Source: Neoroseomonas eburnea (lineage in GTDB: Bacteria > Pseudomonadota > Alphaproteobacteria > Acetobacterales > Acetobacteraceae). From it: a DNA stretch of 64,000 nt. A model generated the notes under the pieces. That model did not search any database. It was given only the letters and a program-made list of their open reading frames with translations, and had not been told where the DNA came from. The first letter of the stretch is position 1. Each line of letters begins with the position of its first letter. Below, one piece after another: positions 94 through 39,302 of the stretch. The stretch covers positions 77,897 through 141,896 of the forward strand of contig NZ_JAAEDL010000002.1 in assembly GCF_018129005.1 (NCBI RefSeq), given 5' to 3'. The position numbers and the translations under genes are program-made.

Positions 94-290
94 CTAGCGT
101 CTGACCGGGCCGTTCTTCGGCCCCGAATGGCGGCGCATGGCGCGCGGCCCCCCCGTGTGTGACCTTGTCCCCCGACAGGCGAGGCCCCCTCCTAGCCCCG
201 ACGGCCAGGCAATGCAAACCGGGTCATATGTTTGGCGTGGCGGCAACGCGGAGCCTATCCTGCCAGGGTGACTCGGTCCTGCCGCCGTCC

Positions 291-2306
291 ATGCTGACGG
301 CCCTGGCACTGCTGGTGGCTACCCTGGCGGCGCTCGGTTTCGCCGGGTTGGCGCTTGCCCGCCGCCCGGCGGGGGCGCGGCTGCTGCATGGCGCCTGCGC
401 CGTGGCCGGCTTCGCGCTGGTCGCCGGCGGCGTTGCCGGGCTGCTCGGCGGGCCACAGACGATCGACCTGCCCTTCGGCCCGCCCTGGGGGCCGGCGCGG
501 CTGGCGCTCGATCCGCTCTCCTCCTGGTTCCTGCTGCCGCTCGGCATTGCCGTGGCCTGCGCCTCCCTGTTCGCCCTGGGCGGCATCCACGGGACGGTTC
601 CGGCGCGGGAACTGGTGCCCTGGCCGCTCTTCATCGCCGGCATGGCGCTGACCGTGCTGTCCGCGGACGGCTTCACCCTGCTGCTGGGGTTCGAGGCGAT
701 GTCGCTCGCCTCCTGGGCGCTGGTCGCGCACGACCACGCGCAGGCGGAGAATCGCCGGGCGGCGAGGATCTACCTCGGTTTCGCCGGCTTCGGCGGGCTC
801 ACGCTCATCCTGGCGATCGGGCTGCTGGCCGGCGGCGCGGGGGATGTCGCCTTCGCGGTCCTGCGGGAAGCCCCCCCCGAAGGCCTGCGCGCCATCGGGG
901 TATTGTTGCTGGTGCTCGCCGGCACAGGCTCGAAGGCCGGGCTCGCGCCGCTGCATGTCTGGCTGCCGCTCGCCCATCCCGCGGCGCCGAGCCATGTCTC
1001 GGCGGTGATGTCGGGGGCGATGACCAAGGTCGCGCTCTACATCCTTGCCCGCTTCGCCTTCGACCTGATGGGGCCGGCGCAGCCCTTCTGGATGGGGGCA
1101 CCGCTGATCGCCCTCGGTGCCGCCTCGGCGGTGATCGGGGCGCTGAGGGCCAATCTGGAGGACGACACCAAGACCCTGCTCGCCTGCTCGACCATCGAGA
1201 ATGTCGGGCTGATCGCCATGGGGCTCGGCCTGGCGCTCGCCTTCCGCGGTTCGGACCTGACGGCGATGGCGGCGCTGGCGGCCGGGGCGGCGCTGCTGCA
1301 TGCGCTGAACCACGCGGTCTTCAAGACGCTGCTCTTCCTCGCCGCCGGCGAGGTGCTGCACGGCGCGCTGTCGCGCCGGCTCGACCGGCTCGGCGGGCTG
1401 ATCCACCGCATGCCCTGGACCGCCTGGGCTGCGCTGGTCGGCACCGCGGCTGCGGCCTCGCTGCCGCCGCTGTCGGGTTTCGCCTCGGAATGGCTGCTGC
1501 TGCAGGCGCTGCTGGCCGGCTGGCGGGTCGGCGACCTCGCCTTCCAGATGGGCGTGGCGGCGGCGACGGCGCTGGCGGCGCTGGCCGCGGCACTGGCGGC
1601 CTCGGCGATGGTGCGGTTCTGGGGTTTGGCCTTCCTCGGCCGGCCGCGCACGCCACGCGCCGCGGGGGCGGAGGAAACCGGGGGCGCCGCCCGGATCGCG
1701 CTGCTGCTGCCGGCCGGGCTCACCGTTCTGCTCGGGCTGGCGCCGGGGCTGATGCTCGACCTCGCGGAACCGGCGCTGCGGCTGATGGCCGGCGCCGCCG
1801 CGCCGCGGGCGGGGTCCCTGGCGATCGGCGCGGCGGAAGGCGGCGCCCGCTACTGGCCGCTCTTCGTCGCGGCGCTGCTGGCGGGGGCGATCGGGCTGGC
1901 GGTCTGGCTGGTGCGGCGCCGGGCGCCGGCGGGGGTCGCGCGCGGGCCGGCCTGGGATTGCGGCTTCATCGCCGCACCGCCGCACCTGCCCTTCGGCGAC
2001 CCGGCAACGCAGCCGAGCGCCGCCGGCTTCGGCCAGCCGCTGCGTCGGATGCTGGGCGAAAGCCTGCTCGCCGCGCGCGAGAGCGTCACCATGCCGCCGC
2101 CCGGCGACACCCGCCCCGCCCTGCTGCGGGCGAGCCATCACGACCCGGTCCTCGCCGCCCTGGAAGGCCCGCTGCCGCGCTGGCGGGAGGCGATCGCGAC
2201 CCAGGCGGAGAAGCTGCGGGACCTGTCCATCCGCCAGTGCCTCGGCCTCACCTTCGGGGCGGTGGTGCTGATGCTCGCCCTGCTCGCCTGGCTGGAGGCG
2301 CGCTGA
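291..2306 (+). CDS. Hyf/Ehr-type complex membrane subunit, HyfB/NuoL/MnhA-like proton-antiporter-type subunit
   Basis: The 715-aa ORF (159-2306) contains LAPLHVWLPLAHPAAPSHVSAVMSGAMTKVALY, the hallmark of the NuoL/M/N-HyfB family, and has many TM helices. The start is uncertain (ATG at 159 or 291); 291 was chosen because it begins directly at a TM helix. Confidence 0.8.
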   Translation: MLTALALLVATLAALGFAGLALARRPAGARLLHGACAVAGFALVAGGVAGLLGGPQTIDLPFGPPWGPARLALDPLSSWFLLPLGIAVACASLFALGGIHGTVPARELVPWPLFIAGMALTVLSADGFTLLLGFEAMSLASWALVAHDHAQAENRRAARIYLGFAGFGGLTLILAIGLLAGGAGDVAFAVLREAPPEGLRAIGVLLLVLAGTGSKAGLAPLHVWLPLAHPAAPSHVSAVMSGAMTKVALYILARFAFDLMGPAQPFWMGAPLIALGAASAVIGALRANLEDDTKTLLACSTIENVGLIAMGLGLALAFRGSDLTAMAALAAGAALLHALNHAVFKTLLFLAAGEVLHGALSRRLDRLGGLIHRMPWTAWAALVGTAAAASLPPLSGFASEWLLLQALLAGWRVGDLAFQMGVAAATALAALAAALAASAMVRFWGLAFLGRPRTPRAAGAEETGGAARIALLLPAGLTVLLGLAPGLMLDLAEPALRLMAGAAAPRAGSLAIGAAEGGARYWPLFVAALLAGAIGLAVWLVRRRAPAGVARGPAWDCGFIAAPPHLPFGDPATQPSAAGFGQPLRRMLGESLLAARESVTMPPPGDTRPALLRASHHDPVLAALEGPLPRWREAIATQAEKLRDLSIRQCLGLTFGAVVLMLALLAWLEAR

Positions 2307-2307
2307 G

Positions 2308-3267
2308 ATGGCCGTGGTCTGGGGCATCCTCGCGCAGATCCTTCACCTCGCGCTGATCCTCGCCGCCGCGCCGGCGCTGACCGGCGTGGTGCGCTGGCTG
2401 AAGGCGCGGATGATGGGCCGGCAGGGGCCGCATCCGCTGCAGCCGCTGCGGGACCTCGTGAAGCTGCTGCGCAAGCGGCCGGTGCTGGCGGAGAACGCCT
2501 CCGCCGTCTCGCGCGCCGCGCCCTATGTCGCGGTCGGCGCGGCGGTGGCGGCGGCGGCGCTGGTGCCCTCCTTCGCCCGCGGCATGGCCTTCGCGCCGCT
2601 GGCCGACCTGATCCTGGTGGCGGGGCTGCTGGCGCTCGGGCGCGTCGCCATGGCGCTCGCCGGCATGGATGTCGGCACGCCCTTCGGCGGGCTCGGCGCG
2701 GCGCGGGAGATGAGCTTCGCGGCGCTCGCCGAACCCGCGCTGGTGGTGGCGGCGCTGACGCTCGCCATCCTCGCCGCCTCGACCAACCTCGATGCCATCG
2801 CCGGCGCCGTGCGCGACGGCGGGCTCGGGCTGCGCGTCTCGCTCGGCCTCGCGCTGGTCGCGCTGCTGGCGGTGGCGGTGGCCGAGAACGCCCGCATCCC
2901 GGTGGACAACCCGGCGACGCACCTGGAACTGACCATGGTGCACGAGGCGATGATCCTCGAAGCCTCCGGCCGGCACCTGGCGCTGTGGGACTATGCGGCC
3001 ATGCTGCGGCTGACGCTGTGGCTCGCCCTGCTGGCGGCGGTCTTCCTGCCGCTCGGCCTGGCGCCGCCGGGTGCTGCGCCGCACCATTGGATCCTCGGCC
3101 TGCTCGCCTGGGGGGTGAAGATGGCGGGGCTCGCCCTGGCGCTCGCCGCCTTCGAGAGCGCCATCGCCAAGATGCGCGTCTTCCGCGTGCCGGAATTCCT
3201 CGGCGCGGCGCTGCTGCTGGGGCTGCTCGGCGCCATCTTCCTCTTCGTCTCGACGGGGCTGACGTGA
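2308..3267 (+). CDS. HyfC/NuoH-like membrane subunit of the Hyf/Ehr complex
   Basis: 319-aa polytopic membrane protein immediately downstream of the HyfB-like gene, separated by 1 nt. Its architecture matches HycD/HyfC/NuoH. Confidence 0.75.
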   Translation: MAVVWGILAQILHLALILAAAPALTGVVRWLKARMMGRQGPHPLQPLRDLVKLLRKRPVLAENASAVSRAAPYVAVGAAVAAAALVPSFARGMAFAPLADLILVAGLLALGRVAMALAGMDVGTPFGGLGAAREMSFAALAEPALVVAALTLAILAASTNLDAIAGAVRDGGLGLRVSLGLALVALLAVAVAENARIPVDNPATHLELTMVHEAMILEASGRHLALWDYAAMLRLTLWLALLAAVFLPLGLAPPGAAPHHWILGLLAWGVKMAGLALALAAFESAIAKMRVFRVPEFLGAALLLGLLGAIFLFVSTGLT

Positions 3268-3932
3268 GCTTCGGGCAGCTCCCCTACGACGTCGCGCACC
3301 TGCTGGGCGGCGGCGTGCTGCTGTTCTCCTTCGTGCTGCTCTACCAGCGGCGGATCGGGGCGGTGATCAACGCCTTCGCGACGCAGGGCACGCTGCTGGC
3401 GATCGCCGCGGCCTGGCAGGGCTACGTGCAGGGGGCGCCGGGGCTCTACGTGACGGCGGTGCTGGCGCTGGCGGCCAAGGGCGTGCTGATCCCGCTCGCC
3501 CTGCACGCCATCGTCCGGCGGCTCGACCTGCACCGCACGGTGGAGACCGCGCTCGGCATCGGGCCGTCGCTGGTGGCGGGGGTGGGGCTGGTGGGGCTCG
3601 CGATCCTCGTCGTGCTGCCGGCGACCGAGGGCGCGCGCGCGCTGGCGCGGGAGGACCTCGCCCTCGCCCTGTCCGTCGTGCTGCTGGGCATGCTCATGAT
3701 GATCACGCGCCGCAACGCCATCAGCCAGGTGATCGGGCTGCTCAGTCTCGAGAACGGGCTGATCCTCGCCGCCATCGGCGTCGCCGGCATGCCGCTGGTG
3801 GTGGAGCTCTCCACCGCCGCGCTGGTGCTGATGGTCGCCGTCGTCGCCGGCGTCTTCGCCTTCCAGATCCGGGAGCGCTTCGACACGCTCGACACCGGCA
3901 GCCTGGAAGAACACCGCGGAGAGCGGCGCTGA
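3264..3932 (+). CDS. HyfE-like small membrane subunit
   Basis: GTG at 3264 overlaps the TGA of the upstream gene. About 222 aa, hydrophobic throughout (VSFGQLPYDVAHLLGGGVLLFSFVLLYQRR...). Position and size match HyfE. Confidence 0.55.
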   Translation: MSFGQLPYDVAHLLGGGVLLFSFVLLYQRRIGAVINAFATQGTLLAIAAAWQGYVQGAPGLYVTAVLALAAKGVLIPLALHAIVRRLDLHRTVETALGIGPSLVAGVGLVGLAILVVLPATEGARALAREDLALALSVVLLGMLMMITRRNAISQVIGLLSLENGLILAAIGVAGMPLVVELSTAALVLMVAVVAGVFAFQIRERFDTLDTGSLEEHRGERR

Positions 3933-5368
3933 TGCCGCTGCAATGGGCCATCGTCTTCTTCGCCTGGGGCGGTGCGGTCGTGCTGGCGGCGATCCCGAAC
4001 CTGCGCCATGCGACGCTGGCGAATGCCGCGGTCAGCGCCGGGTCGTTCCTGCTGGCGCTCGCTCTCGCCGCCCAGCCCTTCGCCGAGCATGGCTGGACGC
4101 GCACGGATGCGGTCAACCTGCCCTTCATCCTCGTCTCGGCCTTCGTCGGGCTGACCACCTCGGTCTTCTCCGCCGCGACGCTCGACCAGGAAGGCTTCGA
4201 CCACTGGCGCATCCGCGCCTATCACACCGCCTACCAGGTGTTCATGGGGGCGCAGACGCTGGCGCTGCTGGCGGACAATCTCGGCGTCATGTGGGTGGCG
4301 GTGGAGATCGCGACGCTCGCCACCGTGTCGATGGTCGCGGTGCACCGCACGCCAGCGGCCTTCGAGGCGGCGTGGAAGTTCTTCATCCTCTGCGGCGTCG
4401 GCATCGCCCTGGCGCTGTTCGGCACCATCGTCCTCTATCTCGCCGCGCAGCCGCTGCTGCACGAGGAAACCGGGCTGTCCTGGGCGGCGCTGATGGGCGT
4501 CGCGGCGCAATGCGACCCGGGCACGCTGAACCTCGCCTTCGCCTTCCTGCTGCTCGGCTACGGCACCAAGGCGGGGCTGGTGCCGCTGCATTCCTGGCTG
4601 CCGGATGCCCATGCCGAGGGCCCCGTGCCGATCTCCGCCGTGCTGTCGGGGCTGTTGCTGAACGCCGCGATGCTCGCGGTGCTGCGGGCGAAGTCGATCG
4701 TCGGCGCGAACCCGGAGGCGATCGCACCGGGACCCTTCCTGCTGGCGCTCGGCCTGGCCTCGGTGCTGCTGGCGGCGCTGGCGCTGTGGCGGCGGCGCGA
4801 TGCGCGGCGCTTCTTCGCCTGGTCCAGCATCGAGCACATGGGCCTCGCGGCCTTCGCCTTCGGCCTCGGCGGGCCGGCGGCGAACCTCGCGGGACTGCTG
4901 CACATGATCGGCCATTCTCTGGTGAAGAGCGCGATCTTCTTCGGCGTCGGCCGCGCCGCCCAGGCCAAGGGCAGCCAGAAGATCGCCGACATCGGCGGGC
5001 TGGTGGCGACGCATCCGGCGCTGGGCTGGGGGCTGGCGCTCGCCATCGCGGCGATCGGCGGGCTGCCGCCGGCGCTGATCTTCGCCTCGGAATTCCGGCT
5101 GCTCTCGGCGGCGGCGGCGGAGGCGCCGTGGCTCGCCGTGCCGCTGGCCCTCGGCATGATCACGGCGCTGGCGGCGCTGATCACCGTGCTGCAGGCAATG
5201 TGCTTCGGAACGCCGACGCCGGACGCGGCGACCGCGCCGAATGGCTGGCGCGAGACGGCGGCGGCGACGCCGCTTTGGCTCCATCTGGCAGTCGCGGCGG
5301 GGCTGGGGCTGGCCATGCCGGGGGCGCTGGCGGCGCTGCTGGCCGAGGCTGCGAGGGTGATCGGATGA
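3932..5368 (+). CDS. HyfF/NuoN-like antiporter-type membrane subunit
   Basis: 478 aa. ATG overlaps the upstream stop (TGATG). The motif LVPLHSWLPDAHAEGPVPISAVLSG is typical of NuoM/N-HyfF. Confidence 0.8.
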   Translation: MPLQWAIVFFAWGGAVVLAAIPNLRHATLANAAVSAGSFLLALALAAQPFAEHGWTRTDAVNLPFILVSAFVGLTTSVFSAATLDQEGFDHWRIRAYHTAYQVFMGAQTLALLADNLGVMWVAVEIATLATVSMVAVHRTPAAFEAAWKFFILCGVGIALALFGTIVLYLAAQPLLHEETGLSWAALMGVAAQCDPGTLNLAFAFLLLGYGTKAGLVPLHSWLPDAHAEGPVPISAVLSGLLLNAAMLAVLRAKSIVGANPEAIAPGPFLLALGLASVLLAALALWRRRDARRFFAWSSIEHMGLAAFAFGLGGPAANLAGLLHMIGHSLVKSAIFFGVGRAAQAKGSQKIADIGGLVATHPALGWGLALAIAAIGGLPPALIFASEFRLLSAAAAEAPWLAVPLALGMITALAALITVLQAMCFGTPTPDAATAPNGWRETAAATPLWLHLAVAAGLGLAMPGALAALLAEAARVIG

Positions 5369-5383
5369 GCGCCGTGATGAAAG

Positions 5384-5516
5384 GAAGGTCGGGGGAGGAG
5401 AACCTCCCCCGATCCCCCTCCCTTCCTTGTCCCTTGGGAACTGACTTCGGCTGTCAGTCCCCAGGTGCCAGAGAAGGTTGGGGGGTGCGGGGGGAAGTTC
5501 CCTTCCCCCCGACCTT
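5384..5516. repeat. Intergenic repeat family A, copy 1 (three-hairpin palindromic element, about 130 bp)
   Basis: The left arm gaaggtcgggggaggagaacctcccccgatccccctccc is an imperfect inverse of the right arm ggttggggggtgcggggggaagttcccttccccccgacctt. The central hairpin is gggaactgacttcggctgtcagtcccc. It sits between the hyfF-like stop and the large-subunit start. Three further copies are listed below. Confidence 0.8.
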
Positions 5517-5525
5517 TGTCGCCCC

Positions 5526-7034
5526 ATGACCGCAACCGCCCTCATCCGCGGCGGTGCCCCGCAGGGCGCCCGGCCCTTCGAGCGCTTCCTCCTCACTGCC
5601 GAGACCTGGGCGGAACTGCCGGCGGCGCTGCTGGCCGAGCCTTCGCTCGCCTTGCTCGGCCTATGGGCGGAGCCCGGCATGGTGCATGCCGCGTTCATGG
5701 ATGACGAGACGAACGCGGCGCTGCTCGCCTCCGCCCCGGCCGGGGCCGGCCGCTACACCGCCCTCTCCTCCGCCCGCCCCGGTGCCATCCGCTTCGAGCG
5801 CATGATCCGCGACCTCTGGGCGCTGACGGCGGAGGGCGCGGTCGATCTCCGCCCCTGGCTCGACCACGGGCGCTGGGGCCTGGAGGGCCCGATGTCCGGC
5901 CGCCCCGCGGTGACGGGCGGCGAGCCGCCGCAGCCCGAATTCCTCCCCGTCGAGGGCGAGGGCGTGCATCAGATCCCGGTCGGCCCGATCCATGCCGGCG
6001 TCATCGAGCCCGGTCATTTCCGCTTCCACATCCAGGGCGAGCTGGTGGTCCGGCTGGAGGAGCGGCTCGGCTACAAGCACAAGGGCACGCTCGGGCTGAT
6101 GCTCGGCAAGTCGCCGCGCGCCGCGGCGGCCTTCGCGGCGCGGCTGTCCGGCGATTCCACCGTCGCGCATGGCTGGGCCTTCGCCGCCGCGGCGGAGGCC
6201 GCGCTCGGCGCCGAGGTGCCGCCCCGGGCGCTGGCGCTGCGCGCGGTGATGGGCGAGCTCGAGCGCATCCACAATCACCTCAACGACTGGGGCTTCGTCT
6301 GCAACGATGCCGCCTTCGCCTTCCCGCATGCCCGCTGCGGCTGGCTGCGCGAAGGCGTGCTGCGCGCCTGCGAGGGCGCCTTCGGCCATCGGCTGATGAT
6401 GGACCGCGTGCTGCCCGGCGGCGTGGCGCCGGACATCGCGCCGGGCGGGGCGGAGGCGATCCTCGCCGCCCTCGACGCCGTGGAGCGCGAGACGCCCGCC
6501 CTGATGCGCATCTATGAGAGCCACGCCAGCCTGCAGGACCGGGTGGTCGGCACCGGGTTCCTCGACCCTATGCTGGCGGCGCGCTTCGCCGCCGGCGGCT
6601 TCGTCGGCCGTGGGTCGGGCCGGCGCTTCGATGCGCGGCGGGGGCCCGGCTACGCGCCCTTCGACGCCATGGTTCCGGCGCTCGCGGTGGAGACGGGCGG
6701 CGACGTCGATGCGCGGGTGCGGGTGCGGGTGGCGGAGATCGGTACCGCCATCTCGCTCGTGCGGCGCCTGCTGATGACACTGCCGGAGGGCGAGACGCTG
6801 CTCCCGCTGCCCTCCCGCGCCGGGGAAGGCAGCGCGATGATCGAGGGCTTCCGCGGGGAGTGCCTCGCCTGGGTGCGGCTGGACGAGGGCGGGCTGATCC
6901 GCGCGGTCTTCCTGCGCGACCCTTCCTGGCTGCAATGGCCGCTGCTGGAAGCCGCGATCGAGGGCAACATCGTCGCCGACTTCCCGCTGTGCAACAAATC
7001 CTTCAACTGCTCCTACAGCGGGGTGGACCTGTGA
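5526..7034 (+). CDS. NuoC-NuoD/HycE-like large subunit of an energy-converting-hydrogenase-related (Ehr-type) complex, lacking the [NiFe] cysteine ligands
   Basis: It contains PVGPIHAGVIEPGHFRF and ERLGYKHKG (NuoD/large-subunit signatures). At the position of the N-terminal RxCGxCxxxH motif the sequence is RLSGDSTVAH. The C-terminal DPCxxCxxH motif is replaced by DFPLCNKSFNCSYSGVDL. The start was set at ATG 5526; the upstream in-frame ATG at 5478 reads through repeat A. Confidence 0.85.
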   Translation: MTATALIRGGAPQGARPFERFLLTAETWAELPAALLAEPSLALLGLWAEPGMVHAAFMDDETNAALLASAPAGAGRYTALSSARPGAIRFERMIRDLWALTAEGAVDLRPWLDHGRWGLEGPMSGRPAVTGGEPPQPEFLPVEGEGVHQIPVGPIHAGVIEPGHFRFHIQGELVVRLEERLGYKHKGTLGLMLGKSPRAAAAFAARLSGDSTVAHGWAFAAAAEAALGAEVPPRALALRAVMGELERIHNHLNDWGFVCNDAAFAFPHARCGWLREGVLRACEGAFGHRLMMDRVLPGGVAPDIAPGGAEAILAALDAVERETPALMRIYESHASLQDRVVGTGFLDPMLAARFAAGGFVGRGSGRRFDARRGPGYAPFDAMVPALAVETGGDVDARVRVRVAEIGTAISLVRRLLMTLPEGETLLPLPSRAGEGSAMIEGFRGECLAWVRLDEGGLIRAVFLRDPSWLQWPLLEAAIEGNIVADFPLCNKSFNCSYSGVDL

Positions 7035-7414
7035 CCATCCGCTTCGACCAGACGATCCCGATCCTGCGCATCTTCGATCTCGCGAAGGCGCGCGAGTTCT
7101 ACGTCGACTTCCTCGGCATGAGCTGGGACTGGGAGCATCGCTTCGAGCCGGACCTGCCGGTCTTCGCGCAGGTCTCGCGCGGGGGGCTGCTGCTCTTCCT
7201 CAGCGAGCATTTCGGCGACGGCACGCCAGGGACCAAGCTGCTGCTGCGCATGGGCGGACTCGATGCCTTCCGCGCGGAACTTCTCGGCAGGGCCTATCGC
7301 CATGCCCGGCCTGGCATCCACGAGCGGCCCTGGGGATGGCGGGACATGGAGGTGACGGACCCCTTCGGCAACCGGCTCGTCTTCTCCGAGCGCATCGGGG
7401 AGACATGCGACTGA
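7032..7414 (+). CDS. Glyoxalase/bleomycin-resistance/dioxygenase (VOC) family protein embedded in the Ehr operon
   Basis: GTG at 7032 overlaps the large-subunit stop. About 127 aa. VTIRFDQTIPILRIFDLAKAREFYVDFLGMSWDWEHRF...LFLSEHFGDGTPG is a typical VOC fold sequence pattern. Its 3' end overlaps the next gene by 10 nt. Confidence 0.65.
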
Positions 7415-7947
7415 TGCTGTGGCCCCGCCTCGCCCGCGCCCTGCTCGGCAAGCCGCTGACCGATGCACCGCCGCCCGTGCCGCAGCATACGGTCGTCGCG
7501 TTGGGGGAACGCCTGGCCGCGGCCGCCCGCGTGCGGCTCGGCCGCAGCCTGGCGATCCGCGAGGTGGACAGCGGATCCTGCAACGGCTGCGAGCTGGAAG
7601 TGAACGCGCTGCAGAATGTCGCCTATGACCTCGAACGCTTCGGCCTGCGCTTCGTCGCCTCCCCCAGGCATGCCGACGTGCTACTGGTGACCGGCCCCGC
7701 CTGCCGCAACATGACGGAGGCCCTGCAGCGCGCCCTGGACTGCACCCCGGACCCGAAATGGATCGTCGCGGTCGGCGACTGCGCCGTCGATGGCGGCGTC
7801 TTCAAGGGATCCTATGCCATTGAGGGCGGCGTCGGCGCGGTGCTGCCGGTGGATCTGCTGATTCCGGGGTGCCCGCCCTCCCCCACCCAGTTGCTGGAAG
7901 GGCTGCTGGCGCTGCTGGAAGCCGAGGCGGCGCCGGCCCGGAGATAA
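7405..7947 (+). CDS. NuoB/HycG-like small subunit (Fe-S cluster N2-type)
   Basis: The motifs GSCNGCELE, GDCAVDGG and PGCPP provide the conserved NuoB-type cysteines. ATG at 7405 (MRLMLWPRL...). Confidence 0.85.
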   Translation: MRLMLWPRLARALLGKPLTDAPPPVPQHTVVALGERLAAAARVRLGRSLAIREVDSGSCNGCELEVNALQNVAYDLERFGLRFVASPRHADVLLVTGPACRNMTEALQRALDCTPDPKWIVAVGDCAVDGGVFKGSYAIEGGVGAVLPVDLLIPGCPPSPTQLLEGLLALLEAEAAPARR

Positions 7948-7952
7948 AATTG

Positions 7953-7980
7953 GGCCGGCCGGATCGCTCCAGCCGGCCCA
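7953..7980 (+). terminator. Candidate stem-loop terminator after the Ehr operon
   Basis: gggccggccggatcgctccagccggccc forms an 8-bp GC stem 6 nt after the stop. There is no U-tract, as is common in high-GC alphaproteobacteria. Confidence 0.3.
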
Positions 7981-8191
7981 AGAGCCCTTCCAGAGGAAGG
8001 ACCGGAAACGGTGGCCTGCCGGGAATAAGCCACCGTGACGGAAAGACCTTCGCAGCCGGCACCTCACGGCATGGTGGCAACCGCCTTAACTTCCTGCAAC
8101 CATTGTGCGAAGGGCTCCACCTCCCGCCATGCCCCCTCCCGCTGCCGTGATGCGGTATGGTGGGCGGCGGAATACCCGGAAGCGGGAGGCC

Positions 8192-9553
8192 ATGATGCGG
8201 AACGCAGCCTGGCGGACCGGCGCGGCGGCGAGCCTGCTGCTGAAGGCGGCTGTGGTGCTGGCGGTGCTCCTGGCGGCACTGCCGGCGCTCGCGCAGCAGC
8301 GCGTGGCGCTGGTGGTGGGCAACGGCGCCTACCGCGCCGTGCCGCGGCTCGCCAACCCCGCGGCGGATGCGGCGGCGATCGCCGGCGCGCTGCGGGCCGC
8401 GGGCTTCTCGACCGAGCTGGTGCGGGATTCCGCCAAGGACGGGATGGAAGCGGCGCTGCGCCGCTTCGGCGTGGCGGCGGAAGGCGCGGAACTCGCGGTC
8501 TTCTACTTCGCGGGGCACGGCATCCAGGTCGGCGGCGAGAACTATCTCCTGCCCGTGGATGCCCGGCTGTCCCATGCACGGGACGTGGATTTCGAGCTGA
8601 TCGGCCTGCCGGTCGTGACCCGGGCGATGCAGCCGGCGCGGGCGCGCGTGCTGATCCTCGATGCCTGCCGCGACAACCCGCTGGCGGCGCAGATGCGCGG
8701 GTTGTCCGGCACGCGTTCGGTCGGGCGGGGGCTCGCGCGGGTCGAGACGGTGGACCTCGGCACACTGATCGCATTCTCCACCAGCCCGGGGGCGGTGGCG
8801 CTGGACGGCACGGGGCGCAACAGCCCTTTCACCGCGGCGCTGGTGCAGCACATGGCGACGCCGGGCATCGAGATCCGGCAGTTGATGACGCGGGTGCGCC
8901 GCTCCGTGGTCGAGGCGACGGGCGGCCAGCAGGTGCCCTGGGACAACAGCAGCCTGATCACCGAGGTGGTGCTGCGGCCCGGGCGCGCCCCCGCCGCGCC
9001 GGCCCCGCCGCCGGTCGCCCTGGCGCCGCCGGCATCCCCCGTGCCGCAACCCACGCCGCAGCCCGCCCCGCGCGGCCGTGAGGCCACCATCGCTCCGACG
9101 GCCCCGGCCGTGCCGCTGCGTTTCGCGGCAGCCCGGCAGGTGGCGGCGAGCCAGGGCATTCCCCTGCCGGCCGACCTGCCGGCCGAGGCCGGCCGCGGTG
9201 CCCACCCCCTGCTCGGTGCCTGGGGCGGCACGCCGCGCTGGAACCGGACCGCGCGCGACTATCTGCTGATCGTCCTCGCCGTGGATGCGGCGGCCGGCTC
9301 GGCGGACATCCTGCTCGCGGCCGGCCATGGCACGACGCGCAGTTTCTCCGAAGGGCTGCAGCCAGGCTGGAGCCGCCACCGCGCGGCGCTGCGCGGCGAT
9401 TCCCTCATCTGGCAGGATGCCCTGGGCGACAGGTTCGAGGCCCGCCGCAGCGACTTCTTCGGCGAGGCGGTGGAGATCATCCACCGGCGGTCGGGCAGCG
9501 GCGGCCGCATCGTGAACGCCCAGGGGCAGATCGGGCTGGGCCGGATCGAATAG
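8192..9553 (+). CDS. Secreted caspase-family (peptidase C14) protein with a Pro-rich linker and an uncharacterised C-terminal domain
   Basis: The N-terminal signal/TM is AAASLLLKAAVVLAVLLAALPALAQQ. The caspase His-Cys dyad context is YFAGHGIQ and LILDACRDNP. Then comes a PAAPAPPPVALAPPASPVPQPTPQPAP linker followed by a domain of about 160 aa with no family I can name. Confidence 0.8.
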   Translation: MMRNAAWRTGAAASLLLKAAVVLAVLLAALPALAQQRVALVVGNGAYRAVPRLANPAADAAAIAGALRAAGFSTELVRDSAKDGMEAALRRFGVAAEGAELAVFYFAGHGIQVGGENYLLPVDARLSHARDVDFELIGLPVVTRAMQPARARVLILDACRDNPLAAQMRGLSGTRSVGRGLARVETVDLGTLIAFSTSPGAVALDGTGRNSPFTAALVQHMATPGIEIRQLMTRVRRSVVEATGGQQVPWDNSSLITEVVLRPGRAPAAPAPPPVALAPPASPVPQPTPQPAPRGREATIAPTAPAVPLRFAAARQVAASQGIPLPADLPAEAGRGAHPLLGAWGGTPRWNRTARDYLLIVLAVDAAAGSADILLAAGHGTTRSFSEGLQPGWSRHRAALRGDSLIWQDALGDRFEARRSDFFGEAVEIIHRRSGSGGRIVNAQGQIGLGRIE

Positions 9554-9765: not shown

Positions 9766-10197
9766 CAGGCAGAGCTCCGCCAGGTCCCGCCGCAGCTTCG
9801 GCGGCAGCCTGTCCAGCCCGCGGGCGGCAGGGCGTTCCAGCGCGACGTCCGGCGGCGCTTCCTCCGGCTTGAGGTAGCGCCAGCCCTGGAAGGGCTTCAT
9901 CGGGCGCGCCTCCACCGGCACCAGCGTCGGGTCGAGCACCAGCGCCGCGCAGGCGGTGCCGTCGTCCCATTCCTCCTCGCGGATCTCGAGGATGCGCTGG
10001 CGCACCCGGACGAAGCCGGCGACCACCCAGTAGATCGAGCCGCCGTCGGTGACCTCCTCGATCCGCTTGGGGAACATGCGGGTCCAGGCGCGCAGCGGCG
10101 GGTCGGTGCGCAGGCGCTCCTGCTGGATCGCCGCCAGCGCGGCGACGTCCTTGGGCCCGACGGAGAGCTTGATCAGGTGCAGCACGGCCCCCTGCAT
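9760..10197 (-). CDS. DUF1489 family protein
   Basis: MQGAVLHLIKLSVGPKDVAALAAIQQERL...GSIYWVVAGFVRVRQRILEIRE matches the conserved alphaproteobacterial DUF1489 pattern. Start chosen at ATG 10197; the ORF extends further upstream to 10329. Confidence 0.55.
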   Translation of the reverse strand: MQGAVLHLIKLSVGPKDVAALAAIQQERLRTDPPLRAWTRMFPKRIEEVTDGGSIYWVVAGFVRVRQRILEIREEEWDDGTACAALVLDPTLVPVEARPMKPFQGWRYLKPEEAPPDVALERPAARGLDRLPPKLRRDLAELCLI

Positions 10198-10312
10198 GTC
10201 GCGCCGCGGGCCGAGTCGGCAAGCCCCATCCGTCGCAACGCTTCGTAACCGGCCGCGACGCCCCGGCGAAGTCCCGGCAGGAGCGGTCTTCAGGGCCGCG
10301 CCGGAGACCCCG

Positions 10313-11060
10313 ATGGCCCGTCCCGACATCCCGGCCGAGCACCGCCCGCGCCTCTATCGCTCGGCGCGGGACACGCCGCTCGATATCGTCCGCGGCTGGC
10401 TGCAGGTCTCGGTCTTCGGCGCCCATGCGGTGGGCTCGGCCTTGGGCGCCTGGGGCATCCACGCCGCCCGGCGGCTGTCCAAAGCTTCGGGGCAGTTCCT
10501 CTTCCTCTCGGGCTTCGTGCCCGGCTCGGTCCACACGCTCAAGGCGCATCGGAACGAGGTCGGGGCAGCCGGGCGGGACCCGCGGCAGCGGGCCGGCCGG
10601 GCGTGGCTGACGCACCGCCTGCTGTTCTGCATGTTCGGGGCGCTGATCCTCCGGGCCAGGATGGCCCTGCCCCTGGCCTTAGAGACCGTTTGGAAAGTCC
10701 GTCACCGGTCCGCACCCCCACCCGGCCACCCACGTCAGTATGCTCGAATGGGTGACCGGGTGGGGGTGCGAGCCGGTGACGGACCCGGAAACGCGCCGCG
10801 AGGGGCGTTTCCAAACGGGCTCTTGGAGGTGGACCGGCTGCAATGGCGGATGCTGGCGGATGCCCCCTGGACGGCGCTGCTGCTCCACAGGCCGAATTAC
10901 CACGATATCCTGCCGGTCTTCGTCCTGTGCATGCTCGCCTTGCCCGGCTTCCTGTGGCGGGTGGAGCGGGCGGGCGCGGCGGCGTGGCCGACGGGGATTC
11001 GGCTCGGTTCCGCTGCCGAGCCATGCCGGCCTAGGATGCGCGCGCAATCGAACGGGCGCG
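10313..11060 (+). pseudogene. Remnant of an acyltransferase-3 (OafA/OpgC-like) membrane protein gene interrupted by the repeat-B MITE
   Basis: The N-terminal RDTPLDIVRGWLQVSVFGAHA...GQFLFLSGF resembles the acyltransferase-3 motifs (R-x-D-x-L-R-G and FFV-SGF). The frame reads straight through the 141-bp palindromic element at 10682-10822 and then stops making sense before the sigma-factor gene. The total length is far too short for an intact 10-TM acyltransferase. Confidence 0.3.
10682..10822. repeat. Repeat family B, copy 1 (about 140-bp large palindromic MITE-like element)
   Basis: gagaccgtttggaaa-gtccgtcaccggtccgcacccccacccggccaccc-[loop]-gggtgaccgggtgggggtgcgagccggtgacggac-...-tttccaaacgggctc. 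The arms are near-perfect reverse complements. The second copy is at 37245-37373. Confidence 0.75.
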
Positions 11061-11062
11061 CC

Positions 11063-11617
11063 GTGACGGCAGCACAGGACGGCCGGTGGGAAGCATGGAT
11101 GGCGGCGGCGCAGGCGGGGGACGCCCGCGCCTACGACCTGCTGCTGCGCGACTGCCTGCCCTTGCTGCGCGCCATCGCCCGCCGCCGTATCGCCGACCGG
11201 CACGAGGCCGAGGACGCGGTGCAGGACACGCTGCTCACCATCCATCGCATGCTCGCCGCCTACGACCCCGCCCGCCCCGCCCGCCCCTGGATCGCCGCCA
11301 TCGCCGAGCGCCGCTGCGTGGACCGCCTGCGCCGGCGCGGTCGCGGCGCCGGGCGGGAGACGCCGATCGACGACCATGCCGAGACCCTCGCCGCCCCGCC
11401 CGGCACGACGGGGGAGGACCGCATCGCCGGCCGCCAGTTGCGCGATGCCGTGGCGGAGCTGCCCGAGAGCCAGCGCACCGCGCTGCGCCTCGCGAAGCTC
11501 GAGGATCTGCCGCTGGCCGAGGCGGCCGCGCGGTCCGGCCTGTCGATCGGCGCGCTGAAGGTGGCGACGCACCGCGCGCTGAAGACGCTGCGCCGGCGCC
11601 TGGGCGGGGAGGAGTGA
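11063..11617 (+). CDS. ECF (sigma-70 family) RNA polymerase sigma factor, SigF-like
   Basis: Region 2 is [38 protein letters not shown]. Region 4 is [46 protein letters not shown]. The start is GTG 11063 (the alternative is ATG 11099). Confidence 0.85.
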
Positions 11618-11619
11618 CG

Positions 11620-12282
11620 ATGGAGACCGAGGAGCTGATCGGCCGCCTCACCGCCGGGCTCCGCCCCGTGCGGCGCCTGCCGCATCCGCTGCGCCGCGCG
11701 GCCACGTGGATCGGCTTCGCGCTGGCCGTGATCGCCGTCTTCGTCGCCGCCTTCGGCCCGCGCCAAGACCTGATGGAGCGCCTCCAACGGCCGCACGAGG
11801 TCGCGCAGCTCCTGTTCTGCCTGGCGACCGGCGTGCTGGCGGCGATCGCCGCCTTCGAGCTCTCCCTGCCCGACCGGTCCGCGCGCTGGGTGCTGCTGCC
11901 GCTGCCGGCGGCGGCGGCCTGGGTGGCGAGCCTCGGCATGGGCTGCCTCGCGGACATCGCGCGGATGGGGCCGCAGGCGCTGGTGTTCGGCGCCTCCTGG
12001 GGGTGCTTCCGATTCATCGTTCTGATGGGCGTGCCGCTGGCGCTCTCGCTGGTGTGGATGCTGCGCCATGCGGGGCCGATCCGGCCGGTGCCCGTTGCCG
12101 CCCTGGGCGGGCTCGCCGGCGCGGCGTTGAGCGCGGTCGGGCTGTCGATCTTCCACCACCTCGACGCCGCGCTGATGGTGCTGGCCTGGCATGGCGGCAC
12201 GACGCTGCTGGTGGTGGCGGGCTTCCTGCTCGCGGGGCGCGCCTGGGGCGCGCGGTCGATGCCGGGCTTCACGGCAGCTTAA
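11620..12282 (+). CDS. NrsF-family (DUF1109) membrane anti-sigma factor
   Basis: It begins 3 nt after the sigma-factor stop. 220 aa with six predicted TM helices and a conserved Cys pair ([25 protein letters not shown]). The gene order sigF-nrsF matches the Caulobacter heavy-metal stress module. Confidence 0.7.
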
Positions 12283-12335
12283 GGCGGTACCCGCAGGATG
12301 GCTCCGTCCATCCAGCCCGGGGGGGGTCCCGTCCC

Positions 12336-14657
12336 ATGCGTGCGTTCCTGAACCTGCCAGTCGGCCTCAAGCTAGGTGCATCGGGCCTCGTGGCCCTGCT
12401 GATGCTCGGCGGTATCATCAGCGCGATCCATGTCACCGGCACGACGGTGCAGGAACGTCTGCACGAGCAGGAGCGCGTCACCGAAGCGGGCGCGCTGCTG
12501 TCGAGCGCCTCCACCTCGGCCGCGGAAGCGCCTGTCCATGCATTGACACTGCGCGCCGCCAACACGGCCGAGGAGGTGGAATCCTCCCGCGCAGCGGCGC
12601 TCGCCGCGGTCGAGGCGGCGGCGCGTCTCGCCGGCGAGGCCGCCGGCAAGGTCGGCGACGCATCGGCCGCGCGGCTGATGACCGAGGTCGGCACGCGTGC
12701 CGAGGCCTACGGCGCGGCCGTGAGCGAGCTGGCGCAGCAGCGCCTGGCCATCCTGCGTGCGCGGGACGAGGTCTTCCTGCAGCGGTCGATGGAATACGAC
12801 CAGGCCTTCGAAGGCGCCAACGCCACCATCGAGTTCGACCTCACCGGCCCGACGCAGGAGGATGTCCGCAACCGCTTCGTGTCCTTCCACCAGGGCGTGA
12901 ACGACATGCGGGCCTCGGCGCTGCGCTACCTCGCCACCGGGGATACGCGGCAGGCGCAGCGCGCACGGCGCAGCCTTGCGCAGGCACGGGTGCATGTGCG
13001 CGGCGCCGTCTCCGCCGCGCAGGCGCATGCCCGGGTGAAGGAGGAGCTGGAACGCATCGCCCGGCTGGCCGACCAGGCCGGAGAGGGTGCGATCGCCGCG
13101 ATCGACACCGGAGCGGCACTGCACCGCTACGCCGAGGAGACGGGACGACCCGCGCGCGATGCCTTCGGCGCGGCAGTGACCGCGGCGAATGCACGGCTCA
13201 GGGAGCTCGACCGCGGCTCGGCGGCGGCGGTGACCAATGCGCTCTCGCACCAGTCGAGCATCGTGTTCGGCGTGGCCGGCGGCATCGCTCTGGTGCTGCT
13301 GCTCTCGGCCTGGGTGATGACGCGCGCGATCGGCACGCCGCTGCGCCGCCTTGCCGGCGCGATCGGCGGGATCGCCGAGGGCCGCAGCGACATCGAGGTG
13401 CCGGACCGCGGCCGCCGCGACGAGATCGGCCGCATCGCCGAGGCGCTGGAAGGGCTGCGCGGCAAGGTGGCGGAGGCCTTCAGCCGCAGCCAGATGATCG
13501 AGCAGTTGCCGATCGGCGTGGTGGTGGCCAACCCGAATGACGGCTTCCGCATTTCCTATGCCAATGCCTGCTCGCTGGATCTCGCGCGTGGCATGGAAAA
13601 GGACATGCGCGTGAAGCCGGAGGAGATCGTCGGGCAGGCCATCGACATCTTCTACGACCGGCCCGCCGAGGCGCGCGCCATCCTCGCCGACGCCACCCGC
13701 CTGCCGCACAAGTCGCGCGTGCGCATGGGGGCGGAGGTGCTGGACCTCAACGTCTCGGCGCTGCGCGATGCGGGCGGTGCCTACAGCGGCGCGATGCTGG
13801 CCTGGTCGCGCGTGACCGAGCAGGCGCGGCTCGCCGACACCTTCGAGGAGGAGGTCGGCGCCGTGGTCAATTCCGTGGCGGCCGCAGCGGGGCAGCTCCA
13901 GCATTCGGCGCGCGCGCTGACCGATGCGGCGGCCGAGGCCGGGCGCGAGGCGGTCGCGGTCTCCGAGGCCGGCGCGCAGGCCAATGCGGATGTGCAGGCG
14001 GTCGCCGCCGCGGCAGAGGAGATGGCGGCCTCGGTCGAGGAGATCACCCGTCGCGTCTCCGAGGCCGCCGAGGTTGCCCGCCGCGCCGTCGCCGAGGCCA
14101 AGGCGACCGATTCCACCGTGCGCGGACTGGCCGAGGCGGCATCGCGCATCGGCGACGTGGTGCGGCTGATCGGCGAGATCGCCGGGCAGACCAACCTGCT
14201 CGCGCTCAACGCCACGATCGAGGCGGCGCGTGCCGGCGAGGCCGGCAAGGGCTTCGCCGTGGTGGCGAGCGAGGTGAAGAACCTCGCCGGCCAGACCGCC
14301 AAGGCGACCGAGGAGATCGGCCGCCAGATCGCCGAGATGCAGGGCGCGACCACCCAGGCGGTGGAGGCGATCCGCGCCATCGGCACCACCGTGGACCGCA
14401 CCAGCGACATCGCCACCGCCATCGCCGCCGCGGTCGAGGAGCAGGGCGCCACCACGCGGGAGATCGCGCGCAGCGCCGCGCAGGTGGCGCAGGCCACCGA
14501 CACGGTCGCGCGCAAGATCGAGGGCATCCGCGCCGCGGCGGATTCCACCGGGGAATCGGCCGGGGCCGTGCTGCAGGCTTCCGGCGCGCTGTCCGGCGAT
14601 GCCGAGACACTGCGGGCGCGGGCCGACGGCTTCCTTCGCGCGGTACGGGTCGCCTGA
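12336..14657 (+). CDS. Methyl-accepting chemotaxis protein with periplasmic sensor, HAMP, PAS-like and MA signalling domains
   Basis: Two TM segments flank a periplasmic helical domain of about 260 aa. HAMP is [24 protein letters not shown]-like segment follows ([26 protein letters not shown]...). The conserved MCP signalling core is [31 protein letters not shown]. Confidence 0.9.
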
Positions 14658-14838: not shown

Positions 14839-15870
14839 ATGGGCTACCGGGTCGCGGTCGTCGGCGCCACCGGCGCGGTGGGGCGGGAGATGCTGAAGAC
14901 GCTCGCCGAGCGGAACTTCCCGGTGAGCGAGGTGGTCGCCCTGGCCTCCGGCCGTTCCGCGGGCGCCGAGGTCTCCTTCGGCGAGAAGACGGTGCTCAAG
15001 GTGCGGGACCTCGAGCGCTTCGATTTCACCGGCATGGATATCGGGCTGTTCTCGCCCGGCGCGGCGGTCTCCGCCGTGCATGCGCCGCGTGCGGCGGCCG
15101 CGGGATGCCTCGTGATCGACAATACCTCCCAATTCCGCATGGAACCCGGCGTGCCGCTGGTGGTGCCGGAGGTGAACCCGCATTCCATCGCCAGGCGGCC
15201 GAAGAAGGGGATCATCGCCAACCCCAACTGCTCGACCATCCAGATGGTGGTGGCGCTCAAGCCGCTGCACGACATCTCACGCGTGAAGCGCGTGGTGGTC
15301 GCGACCTACCAGTCGGTCTCCGGCGCGGGGAAGGAGGCGATGGACGAGCTGTGGTCCCAGACCCGCGGCGTCTTCGTCAACGACCCGCCGCTCGCGGAGC
15401 AGTTCACCAAGCCGATCGCCTTCAACGTCATCCCGCATATCGACCGCTTCATGGACGATGGCGCGACGAAGGAGGAATGGAAGATGGCGGTGGAGACACG
15501 GAAGATCCTCGACCCCGACATCCAGGTGATGGCGACCTGCGTGCGCGTGCCGGTGATGATCGGCCATGGCGAGGCCGTGCATGTGGAGTTCGAGAATCCG
15601 ATCACCGAGCGCCAGGCGCGCGAGGCGCTGCGCGACGCGCCGGGCATCACGCTGCTCGACAGCCGTGACGATGGCGGCTACGCGACGCCGCTCGAGATCG
15701 CCGGCGAGGATGCTGTGTTCGTATCGCGGCTGCGGCGCGACCCGACGGTGCCGAACGGGCTCGCCTTCTGGTGCGTGGCGGACAACCTGCGCAAGGGGGC
15801 GGCGCTGAACGCGGTGCAGATCGCGGAGGAAGTGCATCGGAACGGAAGCCTGAAGGTTGGGGGAGGGTGA
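14839..15870 (+). CDS. asd: Aspartate-semialdehyde dehydrogenase
   Basis: MGYRVAVVGATGAVGREMLKTLAERNFP...IANPNCSTIQMVVALKPL...ATYQSVSGAGK are canonical Asd motifs. Confidence 0.95.
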   Translation: MGYRVAVVGATGAVGREMLKTLAERNFPVSEVVALASGRSAGAEVSFGEKTVLKVRDLERFDFTGMDIGLFSPGAAVSAVHAPRAAAAGCLVIDNTSQFRMEPGVPLVVPEVNPHSIARRPKKGIIANPNCSTIQMVVALKPLHDISRVKRVVVATYQSVSGAGKEAMDELWSQTRGVFVNDPPLAEQFTKPIAFNVIPHIDRFMDDGATKEEWKMAVETRKILDPDIQVMATCVRVPVMIGHGEAVHVEFENPITERQAREALRDAPGITLLDSRDDGGYATPLEIAGEDAVFVSRLRRDPTVPNGLAFWCVADNLRKGAALNAVQIAEEVHRNGSLKVGGG

Positions 15871-15980
15871 ACCTCCCCCAGACCCCCTCCCTTTTCTGGC
15901 TTCTGGGAACTGACATCGGAAGTCAGCTCCCAAAGGACAAAAAAAGGAGGGGGACCGGGGGAGTTCACTCCCCCGGCCTT
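15852..15980. repeat. Repeat family A, copy 2
   Basis: gaaggttgggggagggtgaacctcccccagaccccctccc ... gggaactgacatcggaagtcagctccc ... ggagggggaccgggggagttcactcccccggcctt. It overlaps the last 19 nt of asd and the stop of the convergent DMT transporter gene. Confidence 0.75.
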
Positions 15981-30939: not shown

Positions 30940-31069
30940 TGAGGTCGGGGGAGGAGAACCTCCCCCGATCCCCCTCCCTTCCTTGTCGGGGCGCATCGCC
31001 GATGGCGATGCGCAAGGATCCCAAAGAAGGTTGGGGGGTTCGGGGGGAAGTTCCCTTCCCCCCGACCTT
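30940..31069. repeat. Repeat family A, copy 3
   Basis: gaggtcgggggaggagaacctcccccgatccccctccc ... gcgcatcgccgatggcgatgcgc (a perfect 10-bp-arm central hairpin) ... ggttggggggttcggggggaagttcccttccccccgacctt. Confidence 0.8.
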
Positions 31070-39189: not shown

Positions 39190-39225
39190 GCACGTGATAT
39201 AAGCCGCGCCGGTGGGTCCCCGTAG

Positions 39226-39302
39226 CTCAGCAGGATAGAGCACAGGATTCCTAATCCTGGGGCCGTGAGTTCGAATCTCGCCGGGGACGCCACTTCCAGT
39301 TC
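39226..39302 (+). tRNA. tRNA-Arg (anticodon CCT)
   Basis: Acceptor stem is gtccccg/cggggac, discriminator g, encoded CCA. The anticodon loop is ttCCTaa in stem cagga/tcctg. TTCGAAT T-loop. Total 77 nt. Confidence 0.85.

Follow-up and report, generated by a model that had tools for sequence, protein, structure and literature searches.

The Hyq complex of Azorhizobium caulinodans is encoded by hyqRBCEFGI (Ng 2009, PMC2650096; Sprecher 2012, PMC3357923; see also PMC2930871). Its six structural subunits are homologous to NuoL, NuoH, NuoJ/K, NuoM/N, a NuoC::D fusion and NuoB, the 504-residue large subunit HyqG is without both CxxC motifs, and the small subunit HyqI has four cysteines for an N2-type cluster (PMC2650096, PMC3357923). 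Three HyqG cysteines, at positions 258, 491 and 497, are conserved in the family (PMC3357923). Published accounts present hyq as confined to diazotrophic microaerophiles and as part of the nif regulon. The broader class of complexes called Ehr (energy-converting-hydrogenase-related) is defined as resembling group 4 hydrogenases, lacking NiFe motifs and having no known function (PMC6349859, PMC10284858). It includes the Mycobacterium tuberculosis locus Rv0082-Rv0087 (PMC6728331); in Geobacter, the subunits of Ehr are produced, are responsive to the electron donor and are detected in proteomes (PMC7894505). In a published phylogeny, Ehr stands next to group 4f (PMC10284858). Here we describe an operon in 64,000 nucleotides of Neoroseomonas eburnea DNA (assembly GCF_018129005.1, contig NZ_JAAEDL010000002.1, positions 77,897 to 141,896), a stretch referred to as the window. 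This operon is very probably of the Hyq/Ehr type and not a NiFe hydrogenase; the kind is already described, and this copy is a further member with minor local variations. The name "Ehr" reportedly goes back to Coppi in 2005 and Marreiros in 2013, and the Geobacter locus in Coppi's 2005 work is one that we take to be GSU0739-0745.

The operon occupies positions 291-7947 of the plus strand as a single co-directional unit of seven intact open reading frames (ORFs), as established from the ORF list and family profile matches (Table 1). The original prediction, made from the letters of the window, had described six genes; all six complex-I-related genes are indeed matched by profiles, but the VOC-fold gene had been overlooked and brings the total to seven. 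The genes had also been called tightly overlapped, and this holds for most junctions, where one to four bases are shared (the VOC gene is included on both flanks, and the GTG start of hyqE overlaps the hyqC stop), but not for the hyqF-hyqG junction with its 158-bp gap. The statement that formate dehydrogenase, HycB and HycF genes are missing is borne out for both the operon and its annotated neighbours. On the other hand, the two antiporter-like subunits do not make this a "minimal version", as had been proposed, since that count is the standard Hyq/Ehr composition. The hyqE product also has a PF00420 match at 6e-05, under the Pfam cut-off, and hyqI most likely starts where Table 1 places it (MLWPRL, the same as in relatives) rather than upstream. 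The G+C content of the window is about 72%.

Table 1. Features of the hyq operon and its borders (window coordinates)
Feature	Position	Strand	Evidence or remark
Intergenic region, presumed promoter, 197 bp	94-290		Between divergent TRAP small-permease-like gene and hyqB
hyqB, HyfB/NuoL-like antiporter-like subunit, 671 residues	291-2306	+	NF005086 "hydrogenase 4 subunit B" 2e-179; Proton_antipo_M PF00361 1e-43
hyqC, NuoH/HyfC/HycD-like membrane subunit, 319 residues	2308-3267	+	PF00146 NADHdh 2e-33, residues 12-310 of 319
hyqE, HyfE-like membrane subunit, 222 residues, NuoK-like segment	3264-3932	+	NF008556 "hydrogenase 4 membrane subunit" 4e-18
hyqF, HyfF/NuoN-like antiporter-like subunit, 478 residues	3932-5368	+	NF005043 "hydrogenase 4 subunit F" 3e-167, above cut-off
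158-bp insert of nested GC-rich palindromes, like repetitive extragenic palindromic (REP) elements	5369-5525		Ten inverted-repeat pairs
hyqG, fused NuoC-NuoD/HycE-like large subunit, 502 residues	5526-7034	+	PF00346 1e-28; phmmer HycE 7z0s_E 4.6e-44
Former N-terminal NiFe motif, RLSGDSTVAH replacing RxCGxCxxxH	6141-6170	+	Aligned with HycE RVCGICGFAH
Former C-terminal NiFe motif, DFPLCNKSFNCSYSGVDL then stop codon, replacing DPCxxCxxR and cleavable tail	6978-7031	+	HycE alignment
VOC-fold gene, 127 residues, Glyoxalase_7, bleomycin/zorbamycin-binding-protein-like	7031-7414	+	PF19581 2e-47
hyqI, NuoB/HycG-like small subunit, 177 residues	7414-7947	+	PF01058 3e-32; NF005012 4e-36
GC-rich palindromic hairpin, likely operon end	7950-7981		14-pair stem, terminator scan

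In phmmer and MAFFT alignments, the four NiFe-ligating cysteines of Escherichia coli HycE (C241, C244, C531 and C534) correspond to S208, S211, S496 and G499 of HyqG. The claim that all four are absent or displaced thus stands, and the bases assigned to the two altered motifs encode exactly the residues given for them. The HycE sequence SLDPCYSCTDR, followed by 32 residues, aligns with SFNCSYSGVDL and a stop codon: HyqG ends in "VDL" with no cleavable C-terminal tail, whereas HycE and HyfG both run 32 residues past "DR", and the terminal Arg of hydrogenases and NuoD is Leu. Two HyqG cysteines, C489 and C495, lie near the former ligand sites and are off register with those of HycE. A frameshift or a wrong start, which the original prediction had named as a possible source of error, is ruled out as the cause of the missing cysteines, both by a 502-residue database protein that is 100% identical to HyqG (recorded in Roseomonas eburnea under the name "HypE") and by the fact that the replacements are family-wide, with S208, G209, D210 and G499 unchanged throughout the query and the 120 homologue clusters closest to it. 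The alignment with HycE spans HyqG from residue 72 to the end, and after HycE the phmmer matches are MbhL (1e-33) and Nqo4 (6e-22). The AlphaFold2 model has a predicted local distance difference test score of 95.2, and its top fold match is HycE (template modelling score 0.90), then E. coli NuoCD (0.89), at full length. This HyqG is a NiFe-free NuoC-NuoD fusion. In public records HyqG appears as "hydrogenase expression protein HypE", "nickel-dependent hydrogenase large subunit" or "NADH-quinone oxidoreductase subunit C", names which are misleading for this copy.

Large-subunit homologues of the Hyq/Ehr kind form at least 8,000 clusters at 90% identity. Searched exhaustively, the 50%-identity representatives yielded 5,529 matches, 846 of them below 1e-30, and the ligand survey covered the full-length sequences aligned among the best 150 of these 5,529. 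In about 90% of the surveyed representatives the consensus is Cys-less, R[ILV]SGD[ST].V[AG]H with DFPL[CIV]NKSFNLSY[SA]G.DL; the full set of four cysteines (R.CG.C and ELCY[SA]C.DR) is present in eight. In the Cys-less representatives, the four former ligand columns hold Ser (60/90), Ser/Ala/Thr, Ser (66/90) and Gly (85/90). The position of Asp210, between the first two former ligands, is Asp in 73 of these 90 sequences and in none of 10 four-Cys sequences, an Ehr-specific residue; the replacement residues, Asp210 above all, are under strict conservation. Some Ehr members have degenerate pocket motifs. In a neighbour-joining tree of 101 sequences (50%-identity representatives; rough, with no support values), the query lies deep within the Cys-less clade, group-4f-like four-Cys sequences are at the base of that clade, and HycE and HyfG fall outside. 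Clustering with true group 4 [NiFe] hydrogenases had been put forward as the other way in which the prediction might fail, and the large subunit nests among Cys-less sequences instead. With neither a frameshift nor such clustering, the prediction therefore withstands both of the objections that it had raised against itself. The complex seems to descend from group 4 (4f-like) [NiFe] hydrogenases but cannot hold a NiFe centre. The lost NiFe ligands, the retained cluster cysteines of the small subunit and the placement in the Cys-less clade together support the Ehr assignment first made, to a kind that is already published.

Within this class, the closest likeness is to Hyq of A. caulinodans and to orthologues from genera such as Rhizobium, Bradyrhizobium, Azospirillum and Rhodopseudomonas. 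There are six structural genes in identical order, a NuoC::NuoD fusion of about 500 residues with no CxxC motifs, three cysteines, a C-terminal PLCNKSFNCSYSGxDL and a four-Cys HyqI. Among plasmids, tblastn finds the hyq operon in two of the genera already published for it, Rhizobium (R. leguminosarum/johnstonii) and Azospirillum, with large subunits 52-57% identical; on pRL11 of R. johnstonii 3841 the locus reads HTH regulator, hyfB, nuoH, hyfE, hyfF, "NuoC" and NuoB, the same gene order as in the window. The HyqG proteins of the window, Rhizobium and Azospirillum have RxSGDSTVA[HY], ICNDAAF and PLCNKSFNCSYSGxDL-stop in common. HyqG C259, C489 and C495 align with the Rhizobium and Azospirillum copies and match the spacing of A. 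caulinodans 258, 491 and 497 (numbering from PMC3357923). They are present in 121, 118 and 113, respectively, of 121 aligned sequences (the query together with the 120 homologue clusters nearest to it). The operon also differs from published Hyq. The pRL11 copy has a 98-residue HTH_3 gene that overlaps hyfB, and no hyqR helix-turn-helix gene precedes hyqB in the window, where 197 non-coding bp and then the divergent TRAP permease gene lie in front of hyqB. In this region (94-290) there is neither a NifA box (upstream activating sequence, TGT-N10-ACA) nor a sigma-54 promoter consensus (GG-N10-GC), and no FNR/FixK consensus or sigma-70 consensus match. Unlike Hyq, the window copy carries a VOC gene between hyqG and hyqI and a REP-like insert between hyqF and hyqG, and its host, a Roseomonas (Acetobacteraceae), is outside the diazotrophic microaerophiles named as the family's limit. 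The published statements on diazotrophy and the nif regulon do not describe this operon. We collected 80 genome loci, nearly all from Roseomonas-type Acetobacteraceae, in which the hyq family is common; all are consistent with the order B-C-E-F-G-I, and all six hyq genes are detected in every locus long enough to hold the operon.

The small subunit was said to keep its N2-type cysteines, and these can be identified as C56 and C59 (CNGC), C123 (GDCA) and C153 (GCPP), aligned with the ligands of HycG and HyfI. The first pair is of the hydrogenase type, CxxC, and not the CC of complex I, and the motif is kept in all 43 scorable loci. HyqI is thereby predicted to carry one N2-position [4Fe-4S] cluster with its four Cys ligands retained. 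In the membrane arm, E135, K215, K246 and E400 of HyqB align with E144, K234, K265 and E407 of E. coli NuoM, a pattern as in E. coli HyfB, and HyqF has E125, K213, N244 and E387 at these positions, identical to the pattern of HyfF. The HyqB C-terminus resembles that of HyfB and NuoL, with a long amphipathic stretch and then a last anchoring transmembrane helix (hydrophobic segment 645-671). A NuoI/HycF-type subunit with two [4Fe-4S] clusters is found neither in the operon, nor among the annotated neighbours, nor as a conserved neighbour within 10 kb in the 80 loci.

The best overall explanation, and on balance a probable one, is that the complex is a single-cluster, redox-coupled, ion-translocating module and not a NiFe hydrogenase. 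The six Hyq subunits would assemble like the core of formate hydrogenlyase or of complex I. Because no NuoI-type subunit caps it, the HyqI cluster would probably trade electrons directly with a soluble low-potential carrier such as ferredoxin or flavodoxin. These electrons would probably travel to or from a small acceptor in the cavity formed by HyqG, HyqI and HyqC, for which a membrane quinone in a non-canonical binding mode is the most plausible candidate, and the redox step would be tied, in one direction or the other, to the passage of H+ or Na+ through HyqC-E-F-B. For the specific coupling of a soluble carrier to quinone our confidence is lower, and we put it forward tentatively, as a rather doubtful part of the model.

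Several points weigh against this proposal. The original prediction had called for a comparison of quinone-pocket and NiFe-pocket signatures, and ligands of both kinds turn out to be replaced in HyqG. The residues H224 and Y273 of E. coli NuoCD align with I160 and G209, and among the Cys-less representatives Ile occupies the first position in 56/90 and Gly the second in 74/90. In complex I, these NuoD His and Tyr residues bind quinone. Since the NiFe ligands and the quinone ligands are both replaced, the pocket is not a NiFe site, nor is it a quinone site of the canonical type, and with the canonical quinone ligands missing, quinone as the acceptor is therefore a guess. The proton-pathway Glu of HycE, E193, is retained as E161 of HyqG together with most second-shell residues, which exceeds what a quinone site needs. 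The operon has no linked gene for a ferredoxin or a flavodoxin. No family member is solved in the Protein Data Bank (PDB), where the closest entry is HycE at 25% identity, and a literature search for biochemical or structural work on Ehr or Rv0082-87 returned transcript and proteome mentions only. Finally, the only in vivo data are those on A. caulinodans hyq, which tie it to H2 uptake and evolution (PMC2650096, PMC2930871, PMC3357923), phenotypes that the carrier-to-quinone proposal leaves unexplained.

These phenotypes are the basis of the main rival, in which the complex is a true "endo-hydrogenase" (an H2:quinone oxidoreductase, as proposed for A. caulinodans) with a non-classical catalytic site. 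In A. caulinodans, hup hyq double mutants evolve about 80-fold more nodule H2 than does either single mutant (27 versus about 0.3 umol per g per h; PMC2930871), and a hyq-dependent H2 evolution occurs below 1 uM O2 (PMC3357923). Rhodocista centenaria reportedly recycles H2 with hyq and without hup or hyp. The site might be built from the invariant Ser-Gly-Asp-Ser and Ser..Gly motifs plus C259, C489 and C495, and the window HyqG does have the three cysteines of the family, the invariant Asp210 and the hydrogenase proton-pathway Glu E161. However, the four metal-ligating cysteines have given way to three Ser and one Gly, and the maturation tail is gone. Outside the alphaproteobacterial subgroup two of the three cysteines are not conserved, position 495 being Leu in 60/90 and position 489 Ile in 37/90 of the Cys-less representatives. 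No enzyme has been purified, and the published A. caulinodans hyq deletion also took out the regulator gene hyqR, so an indirect regulatory effect is possible. The window operon has no nif-type promoter, and other authors treat Ehr complexes as non-hydrogenases (PMC6728331, PMC13194489, PMC10284858). We consider an endo-hydrogenase unlikely.

If the redox step is set aside altogether, the operon could encode an Mrp-like cation/proton antiporter, with the HyqG/HyqI arm as a structural or redox-sensing lid and a cluster that is regulatory, not catalytic. The charged transmembrane residues kept in both antiporter-like subunits agree with this, as do a former active site devoid of NiFe and quinone ligands and the lack of any electron-input module or partner linked to the operon. 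Nevertheless, the four cluster cysteines and the NuoH-like coupling subunit are strictly kept, and close relatives show no variation in the pocket motif SGD. The ratio of non-synonymous to synonymous substitution rates (dN/dS), calculated against three relatives, is 0.14-0.26 for every gene, the VOC gene included, which indicates purifying selection; for HyqG it is about 0.25, close to that of the membrane subunits, and fits a working site better than a lid. Known Mrp systems are without NuoB, NuoD or NuoH homologues. A redox-independent antiporter thus seems improbable. The same dN/dS values speak against a decaying relic of a group 4 hydrogenase operon with no present function. One paper assumes that Geobacter Ehr is non-functional (PMC13194489), and the window copy has acquired a REP-like element and a foreign VOC gene. 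But each of the seven ORFs is intact, one gene order is consistent with all 80 loci, thousands of homologues keep the same replacement residues, and the Geobacter subunits are detected in proteomes. These conservation data effectively refute decay, and we hold it to be extremely improbable.

The redox-coupled module that we favour can also be placed among better-known relatives. Every subunit finds its best sequence and fold matches in E. coli hydrogenase-4 (HyfABCDEFGHIJ) and hydrogenase-3/formate hydrogenlyase (Hyc; 7Z0S), which have the same antiporter residue pattern and a CxxC-type small subunit. Unlike the window complex, these enzymes possess all four NiFe cysteines and a tail of 32 residues that is cleaved off, and they have ferredoxin-type subunits (HycB/HycF, HyfA/HyfH), a formate dehydrogenase partner and, in Hyf, a third antiporter-like subunit, HyfD. 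The nearest four-Cys relatives, the group 4f [NiFe] hydrogenases (Ehf), have DFPLINKSF and a large part of the pocket in common with the window HyqG, but group 4f keeps R.CG.C and ELCY[SA]C.DR where the window has R.SGDS and NCSYSG.DL. Complex I (NDH-1) has the same folds, the N2-position cluster, the NuoH-like coupling subunit, antiporter-like subunits and a NuoL-like lateral C-terminal extension. Here, in contrast, the quinone His and Tyr are missing (Ile160 and Gly209), CxxC stands in place of the tandem CC of NuoB, and the operon has no NuoA, no NuoI, no separate NuoJ, no third antiporter-like subunit and no NADH module. The Pyrococcus MBX/MBS sulfane reductase (6U8Y) is hydrogenase-derived, NiFe-free and equipped with Mrp-like subunits, and so sets a precedent for new chemistry in this scaffold; it is a distant match only (MbsL, 5.6e-10). 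MBS retains a subunit of the NuoI type and is far richer in membrane subunits. Ehr itself, characterized by large and small subunits without NiFe ligands, a NuoH-like, a HyfE-like and two NuoL/N-like membrane subunits, is a broad class of which the window operon belongs to the alphaproteobacterial "NCSYSG" subgroup. In other Ehr members the small-subunit gene is elsewhere: L088 (labels of this form are our locus handles) has none after G, and in M. tuberculosis the small-subunit gene Rv0082 presumably lies upstream, as in the H37Rv annotation.

The junction between hyqG and hyqI is a tolerated slot for small extra genes. In the window, the GTG start of the VOC gene overlaps the hyqG stop (GTGA) and its stop overlaps the ATG of hyqI (TGATG); the gene is translationally coupled to both of its flanking genes. 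Its product has a weak match (1e-06) to the zorbamycin-binding protein 5cj3_A in the PDB. The VOC gene occupies this junction in 11 of 80 related loci from several genera as well as in the window, with a dN/dS of 0.21, and VOC identity broadly tracks HyqG identity across loci, which suggests inheritance with repeated loss. The junction is empty in most of the 80 loci. Another occupant is an unannotated conserved ORF of about 77 residues with no Pfam match, found in 11 loci (Falsiroseomonas and others). It lies at 11497-11744 in L033 and at the same junction in L034, L036, L039, L040, L041, L044, L045, L048, L064 and L071, and its motif reads …GASGxFTVTLxKPGPGR..EHWAYDxRAxAL…GTELVLRDPEGxDLLR…. 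A YnfA-like gene is present in the slot in L065, and an opposite-strand DOPA-dioxygenase-like gene in L066. The idea that the VOC and 77-residue proteins are related half-modules was dropped, with an hhalign probability of 1% and no Pfam match for the latter. Most likely, what the VOC gene encodes is not a core subunit, and the gene is a passenger with an accessory role in a variable operon slot. A bolder reading is that the Ser-Gly-Asp-Ser and Ser..Gly pocket, with C259, C489 and C495 in the subgroup, is a new non-NiFe catalytic site, and that the slot proteins are real accessory subunits. If this were true, such a site would account for the A. caulinodans H2 phenotypes or for another small-molecule redox reaction, and the VOC and 77-residue proteins would dock on the exposed small subunit, in the place that NuoI or HycF takes in all other relatives; we regard this reading as a long shot.

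The insert between hyqF and hyqG contains the hairpin GGGGGGAAGTTCCCTTCCCCCC, which recurs at 31042-31063, with a variant at 15859-15879; in all, the window has five matches to this hairpin, versus 0.08 expected by chance. The insert is absent in close relatives (L004 and L006), where F and G abut. Similar G/C-rich inserts are seen in the F-G or G-I gaps of L020, L058 and L066. In front of the operon, a search for a conserved promoter motif 5' of hyqB gave nothing general: the 11 intergenic regions align poorly, and CTATCCT...GGTGACTCGG immediately precedes the start codon in the closest relatives only. The promoter region of L004 (Neoroseomonas terrae) contains a perfect palindrome, GATGCAAATTGCATC, about 120 bp upstream of hyqB, which could be an operator; a partial copy, GCAATGCAAACC, is found in the window at about 205-220. 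At the other end, the hairpin behind hyqI has its T-run on the minus-strand side only, and its role as a plus-strand terminator is therefore something we infer.

The genes around the operon were surveyed by all-against-all ORF clustering of 81 loci, within 10 kb. The operon's upstream neighbour is conserved in about 30 Acetobacteraceae loci (including L004, L006, L020, L021, L030, L035, L042, L044, L045 and L051), being a divergent TRAP pair (DctQ/DctM-like); the downstream one, DUF1489, is conserved in about 25. The TRAP small-permease-like gene of the window has its start at position 93 and lies on the minus strand (1-93). No conserved partner gene, be it for a formate dehydrogenase, a ferredoxin, a NuoI-like or hyp protein or a regulator, came out of the survey, in which only the TRAP pair, DUF1489 and shadow ORFs are recurrent; hyp genes are not among the conserved neighbours of the 81 loci. 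The annotated neighbours are a caspase-domain protein, DUF1489, an extracytoplasmic function (ECF) sigma factor with NrsF, and a chemoreceptor. The caspase-domain (Peptidase_C14) gene lies 3' of the operon at 8105-9553 on the plus strand, and a caspase-family gene is also present near the pRL11 hyq locus (L085, 1-807). A link between caspase and operon was considered and rejected: the gene is syntenic only in L006 and L020, the two nearest of the 80 loci, and its presence is therefore treated as coincidence. Further downstream, an ECF sigma factor gene and then an NrsF-type anti-sigma gene (10049-12282, plus strand) and a PAS/HAMP chemoreceptor gene (11706-14657) have no evidence tying them to the operon. 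The sole RNA-family match in the window is tRNA-Arg(CCT) at 39216-39292 (plus strand). Just downstream of it, at 40-48 kb, G+C falls from about 73% to about 66%, a drop that might mark an island.

Taken alone, the window copy adds little, and what it offers are leads for biochemistry rather than a discovery. The only functional claim made for the family, that of a NiFe-free "endo-hydrogenase", conflicts with the sequence. The published idea that hyq is co-selected with nitrogen fixation is weakened, because the family is common in Roseomonas-type Acetobacteraceae and this copy has neither hyqR nor a nif-type promoter. Hyq/Ehr complexes are widespread, and in evolutionary terms they stand where membrane hydrogenases and respiratory complex I meet.

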